From a virus (lineage: Duplodnaviria > Caudoviricetes): DNA of 64,000 nt. The position numbers and the translations under genes are program-made. Positions 18,279 to 58,373 of the stretch are shown piece by piece. Location of the stretch: IMG/VR virus record IMGVR_UViG_3300028886_000045. The stretch is one strand, 5' to 3'. The notes under the pieces are model-generated. The model made no database searches and had not been told where the DNA came from. It saw only the letters and a program-made list of their open reading frames with translations. How positions within the stretch are numbered: position 1 is the stretch's first letter; the number at the start of each line of letters is the position of its first letter.

Positions 18279-21200
18279 TTACAACTTCTCCATTTGCCTA
18301 CGCATTCTGTCCATTTCGTCAGCCATTCGCTTAATTGGCTCTACGACATCCCCCGTGTTCGTTTCAATGTTTTGCAGAACCAAGTAGGATTGTGCCAACA
18401 AGTTCCTTGTGTCCTCGGCAATAGACCTCTGCGTAACGATTTCAGATACCAAGCCTTGCAATGACGTGTTAAGTGATACGCTTTCAGAAAGTGACGCGCT
18501 ACTTTCAAAGCGGTTTCTTTCGCTTTCGGCTATCTTTGCAACCTCTTCCGCGTATCTGTCAAAGAACTCCGTCACCGTTTCGGTTTCGTTGTCCCTTTTA
18601 CGCGCTTCTGTGACTTCCGCGCTATGCTTTCCGACACTTACTTCTTCGTCTTTCTTTTCGGACTTCGTTGTGTTCGGTGTTGCATTCTGCCTTTCTGCGA
18701 TTTCTTGATTGTACGCTTTCAATACCACAGATAAGTCATTTACGCTTTCATACATCTTTTTGATGTAGTCGCTTATGGCATCAAGGGTGGGAACGACATT
18801 TGCGTTTTCTGTGTTATCCGTATCGTTATCCACTTCAACCTCAAATGTTGCACCCTTAGAAAGTGCCGTGTTAGCCTTTTCTGCCATCATTGACATAATT
18901 GTATCAACGCGCTCGGCTAATAGGGTAGAATTGCGTGCAATGACTTCGTTACTCGTCTGCAAAGCCGTAAACCTTCCATTCAGTTCATCGGCTGTGTCTT
19001 GTGACATACCCTCAAAACCCTTGGTCGTACCCTCTTGCTCAGAAACTTGCTTATATCCCGTCAAGTCTGCTATTTGGTCGCGCTTCTGCATAGCCTCTTG
19101 CACCATATCCTCATAGCGTTTTCTGAACTTTTCGACTTCTGCTTGTGACATTTTACCACCGCTATCCGTCAATTTCTTGGAATAGTCATCGTACCATTGT
19201 TGCAACTTATCCTTATACAAAGCACCTATTTCGTTAGATAGCAATGCCTTGGTAAACTTCTCCGTCAAATCGTCTGTGAAATCCGAAGCCGAAGCCTCCA
19301 TATCCATTAACGTATCAACGAAATTCCCATACATATCATCGAAAGACATTTGCGCTACTTGTTCACGCATAGCCTTATCGTTTTCCTTGATAGCCTCGTC
19401 ACATTCAATAATCTTTTCGAGGTATTCTTGGAAATCGCCATCCAACTTTGCCCAAAATAGGCTTTGGTCTTCTTTGATTTTCTGCAACTGCTCACCCGAC
19501 ATCATCGTCAAATCCCTAATATCGGAAATACCGATTTTGTTATAGTACTCCTTTAGGTCGCGATTCATACGATAACCATACGAGTGTGAGCCTATGCTTG
19601 CGCCCGCGCCCAACCTTTCTTGTGCCAAAGTTCTTGTAGCCTCAATCTCGTTGTTATAGATTCTTTCGATTTCCTTTCCAACTTCTTTGATTTCACTACC
19701 CCACGATTCACTTAGATACTCCTTTTTCTTGCTTATCAGTTCATCCCATATACTGATAAGTTCCTCATATTCGCCCTTTGCGTTTTCGTACCCCGAATCG
19801 TCTTTGCCCAAACCTATAAGGTCGGCTGCCGCCGTAGCCAACTGAATTGCTGCGCTTATGATTGCAAGAATGGCAGATGCCTTTTCAATCGTAGATATTG
19901 AGGTGTCTGTCACCGTAGATACGGCTGTCATGGCAGCACCAACAGAAGACACCATATTACCAATATCCTTAATATAACGCCCTGCGTCACCGCCAAATTC
20001 ATTCACTTGCTCACCCAAATCATTCATCGCAGAACCAAGGGAACTTAGGCTCTTTCCTACTTCTGCTCTTGATTTCTTGACCTTTGCATTCGCGGTTTTC
20101 TCCTTATTCAACGCATTCTTGTATCTGTTTTCTGACTTTGTTAGTTTGTCTTGTGCGTCAATAAGTTTATTGGTCGGTATGCCTTGCTTTGCGCGGTTCA
20201 AGTCCTCTTGCGCTTCTGTAACTGCAATTATCGCCTCCCTTTCGCGTGCCAAAGCGTCCTCAACCCTTTGTTGCGCTTCTGCTTGCTCCTCTGCCGTGCC
20301 ACTTTCCATAGCATTGGCATAGTCTTGCTCCGCTTGTTCCCTTACATTGGTGGCAATATCCTTTTCTTGCTCCCTACCTTTCAGTTCGCTTTCATAATAC
20401 GCCTTACTTTCCTCACCGCTAAGTCCGCTTAACCAATTTACTTGTTTCTGTGCGTCTGCAAATTCTTTGGCTGTGTCCTTTACTTCCACCTTTGCCTCTG
20501 CCATTTCCTTTACGCCCTCTTTCCAAGTCTTGAAAGGGTTACGGCTTGTAACCTCTTCGCTTATCTTATTCATAAGGTCTGCAATGGCTTGCAGTTGGTC
20601 GGGTGGTAGGTCTGTCAAAGCAGCCTTCGCGTTCTTTAGTTTAGAGTACAAGGTATCTAACCCTTCAGTAGTAACATACTGTGGGTCTTCCATAGCCGAC
20701 AAATAATTTGGGTCTTTCTTGATTTCTTCCAAACTATTGTTTGCTACAACTTCATCCTTTTCCTTTCTGTATCGCTTTTCTTCGCTGACCTTTTCCCACT
20801 CATTCGCGCCCTTGATACGCAAATCATTAACGCGCTTTATGTGTTCCAACTCAGTTGCTTGTAGTTGCTGTTGCTTATCGCCATATTGTTTCAGATATTC
20901 GATTTTCTTTGGTTCGAGATTATCTGACTTGTTATCAAGCGTTAAAGCAATCTTATCCTGTGCCTTTTCGGAAAGTTCATCACTTTTCTCAATGATACCT
21001 TTCTGCAAATTAGCATCCTTCAGTTGCACATCCAATTCAATCTTTTCGCTTGCAATCTGTTGCAACTCAGCCTTTAGGGTTTGCAATTCCTTGCTTAACC
21101 TTTCCTTTTCGCCTTTCTTGAAATCTGCCCCTTGCAGTTGGATTTCCACCTCTTGAATGCGCTTTTTCTTTTCCTTTTCCTTTTCATCGACTGCCTTTGA

Positions 21201-24200
21201 CCTATCCGTAATATCGGCAATCATCTCCTCATTCTTTTGGCGGTTGTTCCTATTCTGCTCCGCGATTTCGTCCAAAGCCTTTAGGTCTGCTTTCAGTTTC
21301 GCGATTTCTTGCGCACGCTTATCTTCGTCATCCTTGTAGGTTTCATAAACCTCCTTGAATGACTTAGCCTCTTCTGCAATCAGTTGTGCATTAAGTTGTG
21401 CGTTAAGCGCAATCTTCTTTTTCTTGTAGTTGAGGTAATCTTCGTAGTATTTGCCACCCTTTGCAAACTCGCCCGTTCCGCTTTCCAAAGCGTTCTTATC
21501 AAATTCTACTGCGCCCCTACCTTGAACCCCTGCGGACTTCACCTTGCCGTTTTTGTCCTTTTTCTCGTCCTTTGCCTTACGCTCCTTATGGTCGGGGTCT
21601 ATATTCCACAACTTCTCGATTTCGTCTTGCAATGCCTTGACTGCATCCTCATTCTTTGCCTTTAGGTCTGCAATCCTATCATTCACATTCTTGTTACGTT
21701 GCAAGCCGATTTTCTTCTCTGCCTCTTCGACTTCGTTCTCGGCTTTTAACATCGCGTCAATCTGACATTGTGCAATATCCTTTTCGATTTCCCTTAGTTT
21801 CTTCTTCCACCTTTCGGCTTGCGCTTCACGTTCCTTACGCATATCCCTTAACGCCTTTTCACGCGCCAACTTATCGTTTTCAGCCGTAGCCTTTGCGTCC
21901 TTTTCGGCATTCTTCTTTTCCTCTGTCGCGGTCTTTGCCTTTTCCTCTGCTTCTGACTTTCGCTTATCAACTTCTTGCTGTGCGTAATCAGCCGCCAACC
22001 CATATTGTTGTGCCTTTTGCAAGTGGTCTTTCCTTTGCGCGTCTGTCAAATTGCCGTTGTTCGCGCGTTCTGCATGGAATGAAGCATTTTTTCGTAGGGC
22101 ATTCACCGTACCTTGTGTTTCCTTTCCATTACCCACGTTAAACTTGGTTTTCATCCATTGTGGCAAATCTTCAACCTTGGTTGTAAGTTCAAGTTCAATC
22201 TTGTACTTCTTAGCGATATGTGCGAGTTCATCGTTAAGGTCTTTGACTGACATTTTGGAAAGACGCGCCCTTTCCGCAAATTGCTTTTGCGTTGAGGAAA
22301 GCCTTTCGGCTTCATAGTTAGCCTTTCTTTGCGCTTCTGCCGCACGCCAATTCGCCTCGCTAACGTCTTCCGTTACATCCTTAATCGTTGAAATAGTTCT
22401 AAAGTAATCCCTATATGCGGTTTGCATCGTTCTGATTTCGGATGCTGTGTACCCCATAGCCTTACCCAATCTTTCAACATCAGCATTAGCCTCGACTAAT
22501 TGGTGTGCTTGTTTCTTTAGTTGGGAAATTTCGTTTCCATTCTTAGCCTTGATGTCCTTTCTTTCACTTAGCGATTTGCCCGACAAATCGGGGTGTCTTA
22601 GTACCTCAATCCTATCCATGATTTTCTTGTAGTCTGCCAAAGACTTCTCATCAACCATGCCCGCGAGACTTGCACTAATAGCACCACCGCCTTGCAATTT
22701 TTCAAGGCTTTCCGCTAATTGGTTTTTCGCTTCTTCTACACTTTTATCCTCAACTTCGCCAATCTTTGTCTTGACATCAATTTCGCGCCTTATTTCCTTT
22801 TCTTGCTCCATTTTGGCAATAAGTTCATCACGCTTATTGTTAAGGGAGTCCAAAGTTTCCTTTTCGTTTTCCGCGCTTATGCCATACTCCTTCATCAATC
22901 GGTTAAGGTTATCGTATGCGTCCTTATACACCTTGGTATCGGGGGGCGCAGCATTCAAGGCGAAATAATCAGCCTTTACGGTTTGCTTTTCCTTGCTTGC
23001 ATTCTTTTCAAAATCGCTATTCACCTTTGCGATTTCCTTATTGTATTCCTTTGCAAGTTTCGTTGCCTCGTCCTCATAGGTGATAATCTTATAAAGTCCA
23101 TAGCCAACGGCGGCGATGGCTGCGGCAGCGAGCACATAAGGGTTAGCCAACATATCCAAACCTGTCATTGCCATAACAGCCTTGAATTTGCTCGCCTTTC
23201 CTATGTTCTTTCCCATTTCCACGCCAACTATACGCTCCGTTGTCAATCGTTGCTTTCCGTGCGCTTCTAACAATGCGTCCTCTGTCACTTGCTTTTCTTT
23301 CAAAAGGACTTGCTTTTGATTTTCAGCCGTGACAATCTTTTCTTGTATCAATATGGCTTTCGCCTCTGCCTTATCCAACCTTGCAATATTACGCTTTGAA
23401 GCATTCAAAGCAACTTGCTTTTCACATTCGGCTACTATTTGCGCTTGTGTGACTGCTTGTTTGCGTAATGTCAAAAGTTCTTCGTCTGCCTTTGCTATCT
23501 TCGCATCGCGCACCGCCAACTCTGCCATTTGGGACGCATCTGCCTTAGTAGCGTGCTTTCTGATTTCCAATACGGCTTGTTCCCTTTCGGCTTCTAACTG
23601 CGCCCTAATCAACATAAGTTGCTCCGCCGCCATCGTCTGTGCAGTAGCCTTCTGTGTATTCATTTCCACTTGAATACCTGCTTGTTTCTGCATTTCCAAT
23701 GTCATCCTTTCTGCAAGTGCCACCTCTTGCGCTTGCATACTATTATTGAATGCCACAGATACGCTATTATAGGCACTTTCACCCAAACGCAAAGCCTTAT
23801 ATGTGGCAATAACACCGATAAGTGCCTCCGCTCCGTGTATCACGCTTTCGATTTCTTCCCTTGACCAATCGCCCGCGCCCGCGACAAACTCCCTTAGTTT
23901 ACCAATGCCCTCGGTAACATTATCAATGAAATCCTTTGCAATTCCATCGCTTTCTTGGAACGTAAGTATAAAGCCTTCCCATGCAGATTGCAACATCTTT
24001 ATAGAACCCGCGAGGTTATTTGTCATATTTGCAGACATACCCCCCGTGGTGTCTTGGTTCATCTGTGCGCTTATCTTATCACGCAATTCAAGGATTTTTT
24101 GGCTTTCTTGTATAAGGGTAATGAACTGAGTACCACCGCGCGGCCCAATAAGTTTCATACCCTTACCCGTGTCCAAATTCTTCAACTTTTCCAAACCTGC

Positions 24201-25280
24201 CACAAATTCATCCAATGAATGCACGTTTTCCATGCCTTCAATCTTTCCTTGTGCCACCTTGGTAAAAATGTTCCTAAGTGATGTCATAGCCGTGGAAGCC
24301 TCCACACCCGAATCTTTCAACTTACCAAACAAAGCCAAGACATCCTCAATATTCAAGCCTATGGAATGAGCCATCGGTCCGAAAGTTGCGAGGTTATCGC
24401 GTATCATTCGGAAATCAAGTGCCGAAGACATAGTAGCCGAAGCCATAGCATTTGTGTACTTGATAGCCATTTCTTCATAGTCTTTTTCAGCCACGCCAAA
24501 CATTCTAAGCGCAGCACCCGTGGTTGATGCCGCCTCGTCCAACGATGCGCCCGTGGCTTGTGCAAAGTGCAACACAGGCTCTTCCATTGCGTGAATATCA
24601 GAAGCCGAAAAACCTAACTTTGACAAAGCAATCTGCAATTCGGTTACTTGTGAAGCCGTGAACACCGTTTTTCTACCTAACTCCTCGGCTGTGTCCTTAA
24701 ACCCTTGCATTTGTTCGTCTGTTGCGCCCAATATGGCTTTAAGTTGGGAATTTGCCGTTTGGAAAGACATAATTGTATTCTTTGCCTCGCCAATCAGTCC
24801 AACGGCTGAGTAAAGTCCACGCAAAGCAAGGTTGGCAGCGGTGTAGTTCGCTATGAAATTCTTCATACCGATAACAAAACGCCCCGTCGAATCAGCAGCA
24901 CCATCCATAGCCTTTGCAAACATATCCGCTTGACCGCGTGCGTTACGCATCCCTTGCGCCATCGTTATTCCCAAACTTGTTGCCCTTTGCACCGCATTCG
25001 AGTAACCATTCAAACCGCCCGTTGCTTGACGGAAATTTATGTTTAGTGTAGGTGCTTGTATCGCATTGCCTATACTTGCACCTGCTTGTGCTGCCGCTTG
25101 CACCAACGTATTCAGTTCCCCCTTTGCCTTTGCAAGTTGGTTTTGCCACATAGTGACATCAACTTGTGGGGTCAGAACCAAATTCACGTTTTTTAGTTTC
25201 TGCTCCAAACTATTGATTTCCTTGATAAGTGCCGTTAGTTTGGTGTAGTCCGTTTCTACTGTGAAATATAGATTTGCCAC
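18279..25280 (-). CDS. Tail tape measure protein (TP901-type core), 2333 aa
   Basis: GTG start; FTASQV...LSKLGF / LQSAWEG core; long alpha-helical Ala/Lys/Glu-rich sequence. Confidence 0.92.
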   Translation of the reverse strand: MANLYFTVETDYTKLTALIKEINSLEQKLKNVNLVLTPQVDVTMWQNQLAKAKGELNTLVQAAAQAGASIGNAIQAPTLNINFRQATGGLNGYSNAVQRATSLGITMAQGMRNARGQADMFAKAMDGAADSTGRFVIGMKNFIANYTAANLALRGLYSAVGLIGEAKNTIMSFQTANSQLKAILGATDEQMQGFKDTAEELGRKTVFTASQVTELQIALSKLGFSASDIHAMEEPVLHFAQATGASLDEAASTTGAALRMFGVAEKDYEEMAIKYTNAMASATMSSALDFRMIRDNLATFGPMAHSIGLNIEDVLALFGKLKDSGVEASTAMTSLRNIFTKVAQGKIEGMENVHSLDEFVAGLEKLKNLDTGKGMKLIGPRGGTQFITLIQESQKILELRDKISAQMNQDTTGGMSANMTNNLAGSIKMLQSAWEGFILTFQESDGIAKDFIDNVTEGIGKLREFVAGAGDWSREEIESVIHGAEALIGVIATYKALRLGESAYNSVSVAFNNSMQAQEVALAERMTLEMQKQAGIQVEMNTQKATAQTMAAEQLMLIRAQLEAEREQAVLEIRKHATKADASQMAELAVRDAKIAKADEELLTLRKQAVTQAQIVAECEKQVALNASKRNIARLDKAEAKAILIQEKIVTAENQKQVLLKEKQVTEDALLEAHGKQRLTTERIVGVEMGKNIGKASKFKAVMAMTGLDMLANPYVLAAAAIAAVGYGLYKIITYEDEATKLAKEYNKEIAKVNSDFEKNASKEKQTVKADYFALNAAPPDTKVYKDAYDNLNRLMKEYGISAENEKETLDSLNNKRDELIAKMEQEKEIRREIDVKTKIGEVEDKSVEEAKNQLAESLEKLQGGGAISASLAGMVDEKSLADYKKIMDRIEVLRHPDLSGKSLSERKDIKAKNGNEISQLKKQAHQLVEANADVERLGKAMGYTASEIRTMQTAYRDYFRTISTIKDVTEDVSEANWRAAEAQRKANYEAERLSSTQKQFAERARLSKMSVKDLNDELAHIAKKYKIELELTTKVEDLPQWMKTKFNVGNGKETQGTVNALRKNASFHAERANNGNLTDAQRKDHLQKAQQYGLAADYAQQEVDKRKSEAEEKAKTATEEKKNAEKDAKATAENDKLAREKALRDMRKEREAQAERWKKKLREIEKDIAQCQIDAMLKAENEVEEAEKKIGLQRNKNVNDRIADLKAKNEDAVKALQDEIEKLWNIDPDHKERKAKDEKKDKNGKVKSAGVQGRGAVEFDKNALESGTGEFAKGGKYYEDYLNYKKKKIALNAQLNAQLIAEEAKSFKEVYETYKDDEDKRAQEIAKLKADLKALDEIAEQNRNNRQKNEEMIADITDRSKAVDEKEKEKKKRIQEVEIQLQGADFKKGEKERLSKELQTLKAELQQIASEKIELDVQLKDANLQKGIIEKSDELSEKAQDKIALTLDNKSDNLEPKKIEYLKQYGDKQQQLQATELEHIKRVNDLRIKGANEWEKVSEEKRYRKEKDEVVANNSLEEIKKDPNYLSAMEDPQYVTTEGLDTLYSKLKNAKAALTDLPPDQLQAIADLMNKISEEVTSRNPFKTWKEGVKEMAEAKVEVKDTAKEFADAQKQVNWLSGLSGEESKAYYESELKGREQEKDIATNVREQAEQDYANAMESGTAEEQAEAQQRVEDALAREREAIIAVTEAQEDLNRAKQGIPTNKLIDAQDKLTKSENRYKNALNKEKTANAKVKKSRAEVGKSLSSLGSAMNDLGEQVNEFGGDAGRYIKDIGNMVSSVGAAMTAVSTVTDTSISTIEKASAILAIISAAIQLATAAADLIGLGKDDSGYENAKGEYEELISIWDELISKKKEYLSESWGSEIKEVGKEIERIYNNEIEATRTLAQERLGAGASIGSHSYGYRMNRDLKEYYNKIGISDIRDLTMMSGEQLQKIKEDQSLFWAKLDGDFQEYLEKIIECDEAIKENDKAMREQVAQMSFDDMYGNFVDTLMDMEASASDFTDDLTEKFTKALLSNEIGALYKDKLQQWYDDYSKKLTDSGGKMSQAEVEKFRKRYEDMVQEAMQKRDQIADLTGYKQVSEQEGTTKGFEGMSQDTADELNGRFTALQTSNEVIARNSTLLAERVDTIMSMMAEKANTALSKGATFEVEVDNDTDNTENANVVPTLDAISDYIKKMYESVNDLSVVLKAYNQEIAERQNATPNTTKSEKKDEEVSVGKHSAEVTEARKRDNETETVTEFFDRYAEEVAKIAESERNRFESSASLSESVSLNTSLQGLVSEIVTQRSIAEDTRNLLAQSYLVLQNIETNTGDVVEPIKRMADEMDRMRRQMEKL

Positions 25281-25315
25281 GTTTCTTGAATTTTAATGAA
25301 ATACAAATTTTGACA

Positions 25316-25385
25316 CAAAGATAATCTTTATATTTGGTACAACACACACTTGCAATTTGTTATTCTTCACTTATTCGCTAATGAA
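25316..25385 (-). promoter_or_regulatory. Class II promoter for tape measure operon
   Basis: caaagata at 25316-25323; TTCA at 25366, N12, TGAA at 25382-25385. Confidence 0.7.
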
Positions 25386-25530
25386 AACTAACACGCTTTG
25401 TTTGTTCGCTATATTCCTAAAATGTGACACTTTCAGAAAAATAATACCAACTTTTACACACGTTTTAATAACTTTCGTATCATTTTCGTTTGTATAAATT
25501 CAAAAAATAACCTAATTTCTACCTTTTGGC

Positions 25531-25561
25531 TTTGTTGTTTGTGTTTTTTTCCGTAACTTTG
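25531..25561 (+). promoter_or_regulatory. Bacteroidetes sigma-A type promoter driving a small RNA
   Basis: TTTG at 25531-25534, 19-nt spacer, TAACTTTG at 25554-25561. Confidence 0.7.
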
Positions 25562-25565
25562 CAGA

Positions 25566-25655
25566 ATCTTAATTACTCCTCCACTACCCTTTGGTGTGGG
25601 GGAACTTAAAAGGTTTGGAGACGCACCGTCCGTGAGGGATAGTGCGTTTCTTTTG
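25566..25655 (+). ncRNA. Putative ~90-nt trans-acting antisense small RNA
   Basis: Promoter, hairpin 25577-25603, linker ACUUAAAAGGUUUG, terminator hairpin 25621-25647 with a U-rich tail; no AUG. The 5' end is approximate. Confidence 0.65.
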
Positions 25656-25721
25656 TCTATACACAGAAAATGCGCCACCCCCTAAAGGATGACGCACCAA
25701 CTATATAAAACAACCAATTAA

Positions 25722-25916: not shown

Positions 25917-25936
25917 ATTGCTTTGGTCTTAAAAGG

Positions 25937-26437
25937 TTAATCAATAAAGAAACCGATTACGGTGGTGATACCATCCTTATCTGTTGATTTTGACGAATAA
26001 AGTTCGTCATAATCACAGAAAGCACCATCAGCCTCCGAAATGACAAAATGGCAATCGTCTTCCAACTTTTCGATTTCTTCAAGTGTTTCTTGCAAATCCT
26101 TGATTTTGCTTATGGTTTCTTCCATTTCGCAACTATTGGTAACTGCCTTCAAGTTGTCACACATAGGCATTAGGCATTCTTTCAAGAATTTGCCGTTATC
26201 ACCTTTGTACCAACCCCTACGACCCTCAGCCATATTCTCGTCCTTACGAAAATACTTATCCACATCACAAAGGTATGTACCCACGTTGTCATCTACCAAC
26301 AGAAAGCAACACGGCTTAAAACCGCTATTCTTCAAGTCTTCAAGACTATCACATAAAGCCTCCAAACCTATAATGGCTTTGCGGTTATCAACCTTGATTT
26401 GTGGGTAGCCTCTGAAATCATCAATGTCGTACTTCAT
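25937..26437 (-). CDS. Hypothetical protein
   Basis: 166-aa acidic ORF. Confidence 0.7.
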   Translation of the reverse strand: MKYDIDDFRGYPQIKVDNRKAIIGLEALCDSLEDLKNSGFKPCCFLLVDDNVGTYLCDVDKYFRKDENMAEGRRGWYKGDNGKFLKECLMPMCDNLKAVTNSCEMEETISKIKDLQETLEEIEKLEDDCHFVISEADGAFCDYDELYSSKSTDKDGITTVIGFFID

Positions 26438-26631
26438 ACTTCTAATACTTAAAAGGTTTAACTTATTATACTTGTTACTTCTTATTATCGAAATTCGTTG
26501 TTACAACCACATTCGGCAATAGTCTTTGCATATCATCCGCATACATTCTTGCCTCACGCTTTGTACGAAATCCCCTATGGAGGTTTCCGTTAAAGAATAC
26601 TACATATCCTTTTTTCATATTTGCGCCCTCC

Positions 26632-26841
26632 TTACTTATTTGCCCTAACGCAATTATTATACATTATCTGCAAGGCTTGTTTGCGTGTGTAACCGCAACT
26701 TGACCCCTTCAACGTGTCCCATAGTTGGCTATCATGCTCGGTATATGATATATATCTGTTACGATATTCTACGACCACATGGTAACTACCATAACCCTTC
26801 CAACTTACTGAAACCTTGTTTTCTAATTGTGCTAAAGTCAT
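26632..26841 (-). CDS. Hypothetical protein
   Basis: 69-aa ORF behind pseudoknot copy 3. Confidence 0.7.
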   Translation of the reverse strand: MTLAQLENKVSVSWKGYGSYHVVVEYRNRYISYTEHDSQLWDTLKGSSCGYTRKQALQIMYNNCVRANK

Positions 26842-26850
26842 ATCCTTTGT

Positions 26851-26876
26851 GGCTTTGTTATTCTCTTAGCCGTGAG
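26851..26876 (-). ncRNA. 5'-leader pseudoknot, copy 3
   Basis: CUC AC GGCU AA GAG AAUAACAA AGCC; AUG at 26841; -7 box at 26912-26919. Confidence 0.8.
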
Positions 26877-26984
26877 TTCTAATTGATTAACTTTGTTTCT
26901 TAATTACGATGCAAAGGTACAAAAAATATTTGTAATATGCAAATTTTTTGCCAACTTTTTTTCAAACTTTTTTCAAAAAAAATT

Positions 26985-28173: not shown

Positions 28174-28183
28174 TCTTGTTAAT

Positions 28184-28209
28184 GGTCTTTTTATTCTCTT
28201 AACCTTGAG
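28184..28209 (-). ncRNA. 5'-leader pseudoknot, copy 4
   Basis: CUC AA GGUU AA GAG AAUAAAAA GACC (one U-G pair); AUG at 28173; -7 box at 28241-28248. Confidence 0.75.
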
Positions 28210-28380
28210 TTCTAAATTGTTTTGTTTCTTAATTACAATGCAAAGGTAATAATATTTTTTGAACTATGCAAATATTTTACTAACTTTTTTCGTAAAAATA
28301 CCAACTTTTTAACATTTTGCCATGTGGACTTTACAAAATTGCATGGTATAATAAATATTATACATTATTATATATAAATA

Positions 28381-28431: not shown

Positions 28432-28839
28432 ATGTATTGGAATGACATTTTAAGGAAATACAACCTTACGAAAAAGGAGGTTGCTGAAAGATTGGGGCAA
28501 AAACGTAGTAATATCTGTGCGCTTACATCCCCAAAGCATAACATTAAGTTGCAATCCGCTATGAATTTCTGCCGTGCCATTGGGTGCTCAATCAAGGAGG
28601 TGTTGTTTGGTGAGGATTATCTTACGTTCCATATCTTCGTCAATAACGACTACTACTTTGCGACATCCTACAATGACTTGGTAGAACTATTAGACTATTT
28701 GCCTATTTCCAATTTCACACGCTTGCACCTATGCTATGAGGAAAAGCATTACTATGACACGAAACTTGCAATATTGGAAATCGCAAAGAACTTGGATGAG
28801 GCTAACAAATCCTTTGATTTCGACATCAAAGACGATTAA
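28432..28839 (+). CDS. XRE/Cro-CI family helix-turn-helix regulator
   Basis: LTKKEVAERLGQKRSNI..FCRAIGCSIKEVL; the only convincing plus-strand CDS; has its own promoter and terminator. Confidence 0.8.
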   Translation: MYWNDILRKYNLTKKEVAERLGQKRSNICALTSPKHNIKLQSAMNFCRAIGCSIKEVLFGEDYLTFHIFVNNDYYFATSYNDLVELLDYLPISNFTRLHLCYEEKHYYDTKLAILEIAKNLDEANKSFDFDIKDD

Positions 28840-38058: not shown

Positions 38059-38718
38059 TCAAGAAACGTAATCGGCAAAGTTATCCGCAGCCTTCAAAGC
38101 CTCCGCCCTTGTTTCAATTATCTTTGTACCCCTCATTCTGAATGGCACGACTTCAACAATTCCATTTTTCAATGTATCATTAAAACTCCATGCGTCATCA
38201 TCTTTGTCATATTCTTTTAGCACTTTTATAAGTGCCTTACGGAATGACTTATTATTACAGTACATTACTTTCGTCTTTTCGGTTTCGTGCCCAATATCAA
38301 AAAGCATATCGCCTACACCGAAACCCATGCACGCACGGTGTGAAAAGCCGTAATACTTTAGGGTTTTAGTATTGAAAACGACTTGTGGATGACCTACAAC
38401 CTTACGCCACCCCTCGCCAACCAATATCCAAGGCATATCCTCAATGTGGTAACTGCTTCCGTCTGCTATCACAACCAACTTTTCAAATTGGCTATTCCAA
38501 CCGAATATACCACATAACTTATTCTTTCCGTATTCGGAAAAGCCGTTTACATAACGCTTTCTTACCGAAAAGTACACGTTACCAAACAACTTCCAAGCCT
38601 TGATACACATATCCTTACCGCCTGCACATCCCCTTATGTAATAAGGATAGCCGTTTTCTAACTTGACATAAGCCTCGCCATTAAAGCATTTAATCTTACT
38701 TAAAAGGTCTTTTATCAT
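38059..38718 (-). CDS. Hypothetical protein
   Basis: 219 aa; YGFSHRA..GFGVGD motif. Confidence 0.7.
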   Translation of the reverse strand: MIKDLLSKIKCFNGEAYVKLENGYPYYIRGCAGGKDMCIKAWKLFGNVYFSVRKRYVNGFSEYGKNKLCGIFGWNSQFEKLVVIADGSSYHIEDMPWILVGEGWRKVVGHPQVVFNTKTLKYYGFSHRACMGFGVGDMLFDIGHETEKTKVMYCNNKSFRKALIKVLKEYDKDDDAWSFNDTLKNGIVEVVPFRMRGTKIIETRAEALKAADNFADYVS

Positions 38719-43369: not shown

Positions 43370-43395
43370 GACCTTGTTATCCTCTCGGTCGTGAG
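43370..43395 (-). ncRNA. 5'-leader pseudoknot, copy 7
   Basis: CUC AC GACC GA GAG GAUAACAA GGUC; AUG at 43360; -7 box at 43431-43438. Confidence 0.8.
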
Positions 43396-43561
43396 TTCTA
43401 ATTGATTAACTTGTTTTCTTAATTACAATGCAAAGGTACGCATTTTTTTTGAAACTACCAAATATTTTACCAACTTTTTTTCAAAAAAAAATCATTTTTG
43501 TGTGTTTATTGCCAAAACCGCAAAAAAACACCCCCTTATTATAAGGGGATGCTTGAAATAT

Positions 43562-45538: not shown

Positions 45539-45570
45539 ATCTTAATTCTTAAAAGGTGGAACATCATTAA

Positions 45571-50489: not shown

Positions 50490-51641
50490 TTAGCCTTCTA
50501 TCGGTATCAATTCCATTTCTTCCAACTTAAAAGGCTTTGTTGGCACGAAATTTTCAGATACCCAAACGAAATCCTTATAAGAACTAAAGTAATTTCTTAC
50601 AAAGGTCTTCTTTCGTTCTTCGTTTTCATCTTTCGCGCCATTGGTAGGATTGTAGATAAACTCTGCCCACGGATATTCCTTTGACAATTCCTCATCCGCA
50701 TCACCCAAAACCAAGAAACGATACCTAAAAGTACAATTCTTTTTCCAAGCATCCAAACGCTTTCTAAGACTATCGCCATTTGAATACTTTGAAGAATAGA
50801 GCGTTGCAACCAAAGCCTCGTTACGCACCGCCCTTATATACTCTTCTTTTCTGTCTGCCATATCGGGATTAATCGTGAAGAAGAAATCCAAATGCGTATC
50901 TATTCGCGTCTGACAACCCCTTGTTTCCTTCTTCCACAGATACTCCTCCAATGACCTTGTAATATAGTGCTTGATATATATGTGGCTGTATGTAGGCAAA
51001 AACGACTGAAACGCAAAATCCGTGTTGCACCATTTACATTGATGCGTGGCGCGGTGTTGGCTGTAAAAATACCCTTGCTTGTAGGTGTGCATATTGTAGC
51101 AAGCCTTAATCAAAGCCGTAGGCATATCCAACACAATACCTTTCATCTTTTCGGTATATGTTCCCACCACGCCCTTGTCACCATAGTTAGGCTTGTGGAC
51201 ATATCCGTTTGCACCATAACACTCCCATTGCATAGAAAAGGCTTCGTAGTCTTTGAACAAATCCAAAACCCCATCCAATGTTTCCCCATCTTGCAAAGCC
51301 AAAAACTCGTCATTGTCTATAATGAAACACCAATCAATTTCCTTGTGGTATTTCTTGATATAATCCAATCCGACATTAAAATACAAATGTTGCGGATTGC
51401 ACCCCCTTGTAGTCTTTAGGTGTAAAGCCATCTTAAAGGATTCTTCGTTTAGGAACTCCCTCGCGTTTACCAATTCCACCTTATCACCGAATTTGTCGGT
51501 TATATCCTTGTGGCTTTCGCTGTCATAGTCTTCAATAATGCAAATGTAATCAATACCAAAATCCAAATGGTACTTTATCCATTCTTCCAAATATTCGCGC
51601 TCATCCTTAATGGCTGTCAAAATACATGATTTATAACCCAT
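50490..51641 (-). CDS. Glycosyltransferase (GT92 / GT2-like, GT-A fold)
   Basis: IKDE..YL.EWI.YH...G.D and W..IIDNDEFL (DxD) motifs. Confidence 0.85.
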   Translation of the reverse strand: MGYKSCILTAIKDEREYLEEWIKYHLDFGIDYICIIEDYDSESHKDITDKFGDKVELVNAREFLNEESFKMALHLKTTRGCNPQHLYFNVGLDYIKKYHKEIDWCFIIDNDEFLALQDGETLDGVLDLFKDYEAFSMQWECYGANGYVHKPNYGDKGVVGTYTEKMKGIVLDMPTALIKACYNMHTYKQGYFYSQHRATHQCKWCNTDFAFQSFLPTYSHIYIKHYITRSLEEYLWKKETRGCQTRIDTHLDFFFTINPDMADRKEEYIRAVRNEALVATLYSSKYSNGDSLRKRLDAWKKNCTFRYRFLVLGDADEELSKEYPWAEFIYNPTNGAKDENEERKKTFVRNYFSSYKDFVWVSENFVPTKPFKLEEMELIPIEG

Positions 51642-58310: not shown

Positions 58311-58373
58311 AGTGTTTACGTTTTTGTCAATTACACTAAACTACACTTAAAAGGTTTGTTCTATGTGGGGATT

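Follow-up and report, generated by a model that had tools for sequence, protein, structure and literature searches.

A conserved plus-strand unit upstream of a phage tape-measure gene is a candidate RNA regulator of the phage's own genes

The window, by which we mean the whole 64,000-nucleotide stretch of DNA analyzed here, is the reverse strand of positions 82343-146342 of an IMG/VR phage record (G000:C1) of 178,667 bp, rated 96% complete. The phage promoters are of the Bacteroidota kind (-33 TTTG / -7 TAnnTTTG), and the names attached to homologues of the tape-measure protein in homology searches were those of Prevotella and Bacteroidaceae metagenome-assembled genomes. Open reading frames (ORFs) of at least 80 aa total 46,498 aa on the minus strand versus 9,958 aa on the plus strand. 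The small plus-strand unit studied here thus runs against the gene direction, which confirms what the first-pass annotation had claimed for its promoter. The unit and its surroundings are placed as follows, in positions of the window.

18279-25280, minus strand: tape-measure gene (2,333 aa, PF10145)
25281-25721: intergenic gap of 441 nt, between the tape-measure gene and a 64-aa gene, which holds the unit
25316-25385, minus strand: tape-measure promoter, with the -7 box TATCTTTG at 25316-25323 and an upstream palindrome TTCA..TGAA at 25366-25385
25669-25698, minus strand: strong terminator ending the upstream early operon, 90% identical in the relative L019
28381-28839, plus strand: HTH gene including its promoter (coding 28432-28839), encoding a 135-aa Cro/C1-type HTH protein (HTH_26, E 3.4e-6)

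Because the minus-strand terminator at 25669-25698 ends the early operon, the locus of the unit lies outside the normal minus-strand mRNA, and the tape-measure promoter is directed away from that of the unit. The HTH gene at 28432-28839 is the only plus-strand protein gene nearby and is kept in the relatives L019, L021, and L037. Its -7 box TGTAACTTTGCAC is very similar to the -7 box of the unit, TAACTTTG, and this close likeness of the two promoters suggests that the HTH gene and the unit may be under common control.

On the plus strand of the gap, the unit comprises the following elements.

25531-25562, plus strand: promoter, with -33 TTTG at 25531-25534, a 19-nt spacer, and -7 TAACTTTG at 25555-25562, which runs on as TTTGCA
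25566-25655, plus strand: predicted AUG-less transcript of ~90 nt
25567-25576, plus strand: 5'-terminal single-stranded TCTTAATTAC, with an opening energy of 1.1 kcal/mol
25577-25603, plus strand: hairpin 1 of the predicted fold
About 25604-25617, plus strand: linker, or seed, ACUUAAAAGGUUUG, with its core CUUAAAAGGU at 25605-25614, predicted to be accessible
25617-25657, plus strand: intrinsic terminator, a two-tier hairpin (to 25651) with an inner UCC-GUGA-GGA, followed by a U-rich tail

The start of the transcript was placed at the usual distance from the -7 box and its end at the U tract of the terminator. The promoter, hairpin, linker, and terminator described by the first-pass annotation were all found in place, and its reading of the unit as AUG-less held, since there is no ATG on the plus strand from 25566 to 25655. 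The plus-strand fold of the unit has a dG of -38.6 to -39.5 kcal/mol (z about -5.2), which none of 200 shuffles equaled; the minus strand of the locus folds about equally well overall, in a fold that includes the separate terminator at 25669-25698. In the MFE structure, five bases of the linker pair with the 5' end, and opening the 10-nt core costs only 1.5 kcal/mol. Rfam returned nothing for the unit at the gathering threshold (best E 0.1, 16.6 bits versus a threshold of 58.7 bits).

The orientation of the unit can be read from its terminator. Hairpins of the same type, with the loop GTCCGTGAGGATA, recur in the genome and in relatives (window 25617-25651, plus strand; G000:C1 near 119351 and 111341; L019 near 750; L010 near 1517), and in every case a T tract or T-rich tail follows on the loop-reading strand, which argues that the plus strand is the one terminated at this locus. 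In addition, three G.U pairs of the terminator are invariant and one further pair changes from A-U to G.U, which fits a plus-strand RNA only; because such pairs would be C.A mismatches in a minus-strand RNA, the structure is oriented on the plus strand. Several related phages share this recurrent design, in which the inner UCC-GUGA-GGA hairpin is fixed and the outer stem enclosing it varies.

A blastn search of phage databases with the gap and an IMG/VR scan with tape-measure peptides found no close relatives, and exact linker or terminator patterns found no match in IMG/VR and the JGI metagenomes. Relatives with the same gene order were reached by homology search with the tape-measure N-terminus; the assemblies in which relatives turned up are ERZ28633731, ERZ27297816, and DRR595546. 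L037 is nearly identical to the window, and the tape-measure N-terminal regions of L019 and L021 are 86-87% identical to that of the window; the neighboring early proteins of these two are only 45% and 69% identical. Comparison of the window with L019 gave the following identities.

Promoter: 29/32, both boxes and their spacing kept
5' leader: 11/13
Hairpin 1: 16/28, all scored pairs kept
Linker (25601-25619): 19/19, in L021 as well as in L019
Terminator: 42/44
Spacer towards the tape-measure promoter: 79/136 (58%)

The pairing of hairpin 1 is maintained through one compensatory A-U/C-G change and two C-G/U.G changes, the latter giving U.G pairs that suit the plus-strand RNA alone; there are only two distinct sRNA sequences, so structure statistics have no power, and 255 of 500 shuffles reached the observed values. 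Variable stems around a fixed single-stranded segment are, as these alignments read, the pattern of an RNA gene. L037 matches the window throughout the unit and has five differences from it in the adjoining stretch of roughly 55 nt. Conservation of the seed in relatives, a check named by the first-pass annotation, was thereby established, with the seed identical in L019, L021, and L037. In silico, the locus is an independent transcription unit without an ORF, its promoter and terminator are both conserved, and it looks like a genuine, selected plus-strand RNA gene.

The linker contains the word CTTAAAAGGT, which has six exact copies on the plus strand of the window and none on the minus strand. 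In the whole 178,667-bp genome there are nine copies on the window's plus strand versus none on the other, where Markov models of order 0-6 expect 0.2-1.7. The first-pass annotation had listed five repeats besides the linker; all five are exact and on the plus strand (cores at 26448, 58346, 25928, 45548, and 38699), at the distances from AUGs that it had given. The complementary word, ACCUUUUAAG, is called the tag below, and the five tags of the window are placed as follows.

26447-26459, minus strand: 13 nt complementary, core 10 nt before AUG 26437 of a 166-aa gene
25928-25938, minus strand: 11 nt complementary, 11 nt before AUG 25916 of the 64-aa gene
58345-58358, minus strand: 14 nt complementary, 35 nt before AUG 58310 of a 145-aa gene
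45548-45557, minus strand: 10 nt, 9 nt before AUG 45538 of a 73-aa gene
38698-38708, minus strand: 11 nt, in codons 4-7 of a 219-aa gene starting at 38718

Three further copies beyond the window also lie before starts, at 1-14 nt. The eight copies outside the locus are thus all located between -45 and +19 of a start codon, seven of them 1-35 nt before an AUG and one in codons 4-7, so the count by strand and start distance that had been proposed as a check came out in favor of the claim over the full genome. By a crude set of 373 starts, ~14% of the genome lies within this interval, and the chance of finding all eight copies there is about 1e-7. The targets are dispersed over about 166 kb of the phage genome. 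The protein of the tagged gene at 38059-38718 (minus strand, 219 aa) has a Tad6 domain (type I Thoeris inhibitor, E 1.8e-13), which makes this gene a candidate anti-defense gene.

The word is specific in several respects. Its 30 variants with one mismatch show no enrichment, with a combined 9 occurrences on the coding strand and 11 on the opposite one, and wobble variants of the tag showed no clear enrichment either, the one candidate (50526-50535) lying inside a gene. The first-pass annotation had cautioned that the word may simply be common in Bacteroidetes leaders; this concern was not borne out in 41 genomes of a Bacteroidota host family, in which the word occurs 0-10 times per 1.7-4.3 Mb, on both strands, and less frequently than a reversed control word. 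One copy occupies about +5 to +14 of a 5' untranslated region that directly follows a good promoter. The word is therefore present in RNA, which argues for action at the RNA level. A role of the tag as a promoter -7 box was ruled out, as this copy is downstream of a good promoter and most others lie between cistrons. No start codon follows the copy at the locus, in contrast to all the others; on the minus strand this copy lies beyond the early-operon terminator. Nowhere but in the linker does the complement of the phage-specific start-region tag have its own transcription unit. Duplex folding of the whole sRNA against all start regions gave no signal, the reversed sRNA scoring equally.

Many other genes of the phage carry a different start region. 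About 30 copies of a promoter-leader cassette, each of roughly 130 nt, are found genome-wide (in the window, for example, at 26841-26960, 28180-28290, and 43370-43480, minus strand). The cassette consists of an upstream AAAAAGTTGG, a -33 TTTGCA, a -7 TACCTTTGCA, a leader that starts with GTAATTAAGA, and a small pseudoknot located 8-10 nt before the AUG, with stems that covary (e.g., GACC/GGTC, GGCT/AGCC, CTC/GAG, CCC/GGG). The cassette and its pseudoknot leader have no Rfam match, and a known riboswitch was discarded as an explanation on this ground. The leader word GTAATTAAGA has 24 copies on the coding strand versus 0.3-4.7 expected from Markov models. Inspection of the leaders of the tagged genes bore out the first-pass claim that they lack the pseudoknot. 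The 237-kb phage G001, which has one tag copy and three leader-word copies and shares one promoter-cassette word with the phage, has no homologous locus and was set aside as not being a useful relative.

Comparison of start regions among relatives showed that tags come and go while the seed stays the same: one target tag is co-conserved with the seed, and others were gained or lost. The tag is exact before the 64/68-aa orthologue (69% identical) in three lineages, those of the window, L019, and L021, while the sequence on either side of it has diverged, both upstream and in the spacer that leads to the AUG, as have the N-terminal codons. The 166/167-aa homologues (45% identical) have the tag ACCTTTTAAG in the window and a pseudoknot leader in L019 and L021 (the window 26437 leader versus L019:8810-8875 and L021:8822-8887). 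Conversely, L019 and L021 have a tag before a small gene whose counterpart in the window has none. Since the 166/167-aa homologues differ in this way, tag and pseudoknot are interchangeable start-region modules, and their exchange between lineages fits either a separately controlled gene class or a purely cis-acting module. No lineage with a changed seed was found in pattern scans (IMG/VR and JGI metagenomes) and homologue searches, and searches with the Tad6-like and 166-aa proteins reached no further lineages.

More distant relatives (L023-L026) were also compared. The tape-measure N-terminal regions of L023 and L025 are 52-57% identical to that of the window, and both have an antisense-oriented terminator of the same type directly upstream of the tape-measure gene. 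In L025 the terminator is accompanied by TTTG-21 nt-TAATTTTG, a promoter that clearly resembles that of the unit. What lies between promoter and terminator in L023 and L025 bears no relation to the unit of the window, and L023-L026 contain neither the tag nor multi-copy complements to the linkers of their analogous units. In L023 and L024, the tape-measure AUG comes only 4-5 nt after a -7-like box, CACCTTTGCCGTATG (L023:9985-10003, L024:9985-10003), and the start is preceded by a TTCAA..TTGAA palindrome, which suggests that their late tape-measure mRNA is nearly leaderless. The terminase large subunit of L025 (L025:5299-7572, G002:C3) has Hint and LAGLIDADG matches, suggesting that it carries an intein. 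The L025 region belongs to a 3.2-Mb genome and lies on a 141-kb contig of 52% GC with genes on both strands, so it is probably a prophage.

The unit of the window is a good candidate for an RNA through which the phage regulates its own genes, and we consider the chances about even that it encodes a trans-acting antisense sRNA controlling the tagged start regions of eight phage genes. The ~90-nt sRNA would be transcribed, probably by host RNA polymerase, from the standard -33/-7 promoter and ended by the intrinsic terminator. The linker core CUUAAAAGGU would then pair with the phage-specific tag ACCUUUUAAG, in a duplex extended to 11-14 nt at several sites, and thereby block ribosome loading on unstructured leaders devoid of a Shine-Dalgarno sequence, resulting in repression, perhaps with mRNA decay. 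To our knowledge, Bacteroidota do not use Shine-Dalgarno-led initiation. That the sRNA is made, pairs with the tags, and blocks ribosome loading is what we infer from these features, repression being the most likely direction of effect; the swap of tag and pseudoknot between homologous genes leads us to keep activation as a possible direction. A large number of targets would lock both the seed and the tags, which would explain why only the exact 10-mer is enriched. Among the points against a trans-acting sRNA are that the 10-bp sRNA-tag duplex is A/U-rich and weak and that Bacteroidota, as far as we know, lack Hfq.

The main competing explanations do without trans pairing. The antisense promoter and terminator upstream of the tape-measure gene could act in cis, shielding or tuning the late tail operon by pairing with read-through transcripts past the early-operon terminator or by promoter interference, with an incidental match to the tag. 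We regard this as unlikely. It draws its support from L023 and L025, whose analogous units, with neither seed nor tag, hint at a position-dependent role in cis and, in sequence terms, point to an older role tied to the position at the early/late boundary; covariance-model matches in these two, however, are driven mainly by the generic terminator hairpin. A cis-antisense RNA is moreover complementary to its target whatever its sequence, so that a linker conserved at 19/19 beside a spacer conserved at 58% would go unexplained, as would the linker being the exact complement of a start-region word present in nine copies. Alternatively, ACCUUUUAAG itself could act in cis as a start-region module, recognized by the ribosome or by a protein of phage or host, for instance in control of the T4 RegA/RegB kind or as an enhancer equivalent to the pseudoknot, the plus-strand unit being functionally unrelated and the copy in the gap a decoy or leftover. 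The tag could be such a module given its swap with the pseudoknot, as homologous genes have one in one lineage and the other in another; its position, which at most sites is 9-14 nt ahead of the AUG and matches that of the pseudoknot in other leaders, and its gain and loss between lineages point the same way. Yet sites for proteins usually come with degenerate variants, which show no enrichment in this phage; the tags are spaced anywhere between 1 and 35 nt from the AUG, and one falls within codons. As for the ribosome, the 16S rRNAs of three host-family members contain no perfect complement to the tag of at least 8 nt, their best pairing being a weak wobble duplex with an internal segment. 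Nor does this explanation account for the conserved orphan copy, which falls exactly within the open linker of a unit that has its own promoter and terminator on the opposite strand; we think the explanation improbable.

That the unit is a coincidence, a chance promoter-like match beside terminator hairpins together with a functionless repeated word, deserves weighing because the promoter pattern by itself is not rare (12 full matches on the non-coding strand of the phage) and high one-strand counts are common in this genome. Many purine-rich coding 10-mers reach 9-15 copies by coding bias, and one of them creates a false third complementarity peak, in the hairpin 1 loop (CAAAGGGTA, 16 sites inside genes), which was discarded as an artefact. 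CTTAAAAGGT, in contrast, is not purine-rich, adjoins gene starts (7/8 before the AUG), and is far above expectation, and the unit is conserved segment by segment. A chance origin therefore appears very unlikely.

The trans-acting sRNA could also be given a wider reach. Its predicted 5' end, TCTTAATTAC, is exactly complementary to GUAAUUAAGA, with which the cassette leader begins and of which there are about 23 other copies, and this complementarity is kept in L019 and L021, where it spans 11 nt. As a two-seed master regulator, the sRNA would address about 31 phage leaders, one seed, UCUUAAUUAC, pairing with GUAAUUAAGA at the very start of about 23 early cassette mRNAs and the other, the linker, with the tag on the eight start regions without a pseudoknot. 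In a variant, the sRNA-tag helix 9-14 nt before the AUG would replace the cis pseudoknot and activate translation. Because the 5'-end word is partly palindromic (TAATTA), we treat this complementarity as a lead and not as a finding, and we would be somewhat surprised if the two-seed extension proved correct.

A trans-acting antisense sRNA with a single linker seed has counterparts among known systems. DicF is a trans-acting base-pairing sRNA encoded by a phage or prophage, and GibS is a Bacteroides sRNA. Phage and prophage examples of trans sRNAs include 24B_1 of a Stx phage (PMC4426718) and the sRNAs of Pseudomonas phage PAK_P3 (PMC4933390). Like such trans-acting sRNAs, the phage unit has its own promoter, a Rho-independent terminator, a predicted length of about 90 nt, and a conserved unpaired seed complementary to several mRNA initiation regions. 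It differs in being predicted to target genes of the phage itself, in the marking of all of them by the same 10-mer in place of assorted imperfect matches, in its possible second seed at the 5' end, and in a host phylum without Hfq.

The first-pass annotation had drawn an analogy with P1 C4 and P4 CI. These RNAs, which maintain prophage immunity, are cut from a same-strand transcript of the operon they control and have their targets within that transcript. The likeness holds for the recognition by a phage RNA of a short sequence repeated at more than one target site and breaks down for same-strand processing and for targets within the same transcript: the unit is on the opposite strand with its own promoter, its eight targets are spread over about 166 kb, and no evidence of lysogeny was seen for the phage. 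Lacking the features that define P1 C4 and P4 CI, the unit is not a member of that family. Lambda OOP and P22 sar are cis-antisense RNAs that overlap the gene they regulate. The unit resembles them in being predicted to give a short transcript with a dedicated promoter and terminator that runs against the gene direction; unlike them, it overlaps no ORF, lies wholly in the gap at 25281-25721, where only a possible read-through RNA would be overlapped, and matches distant sites through its conserved part. T4 RegA and RegB exemplify protein control of many early start regions. As in the proposed system, a single factor acts on numerous phage mRNAs by way of a short motif close to the start codon, whereas here the factor would be an RNA, and a strict 10-mer takes the place of a loose A/U-rich or GGAG site. 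As far as our literature searches found, no regulatory RNA has been described for phages of Bacteroidota.

Even if the unit were only a cis insulator, it would remain a conserved element of the early/late boundary in these phages. If it is a trans-acting antisense sRNA, a phage that addresses its own genes through a strict tag would possess a compact device for post-transcriptional timing. Consisting of two hairpins, a single seed, and eight tags of identical sequence, it would also be a tractable entry to the workings of translation start regions in Bacteroidota, and it would suggest that tag and anti-tag could serve as a portable pair for controlling genes in gut members of the phylum.
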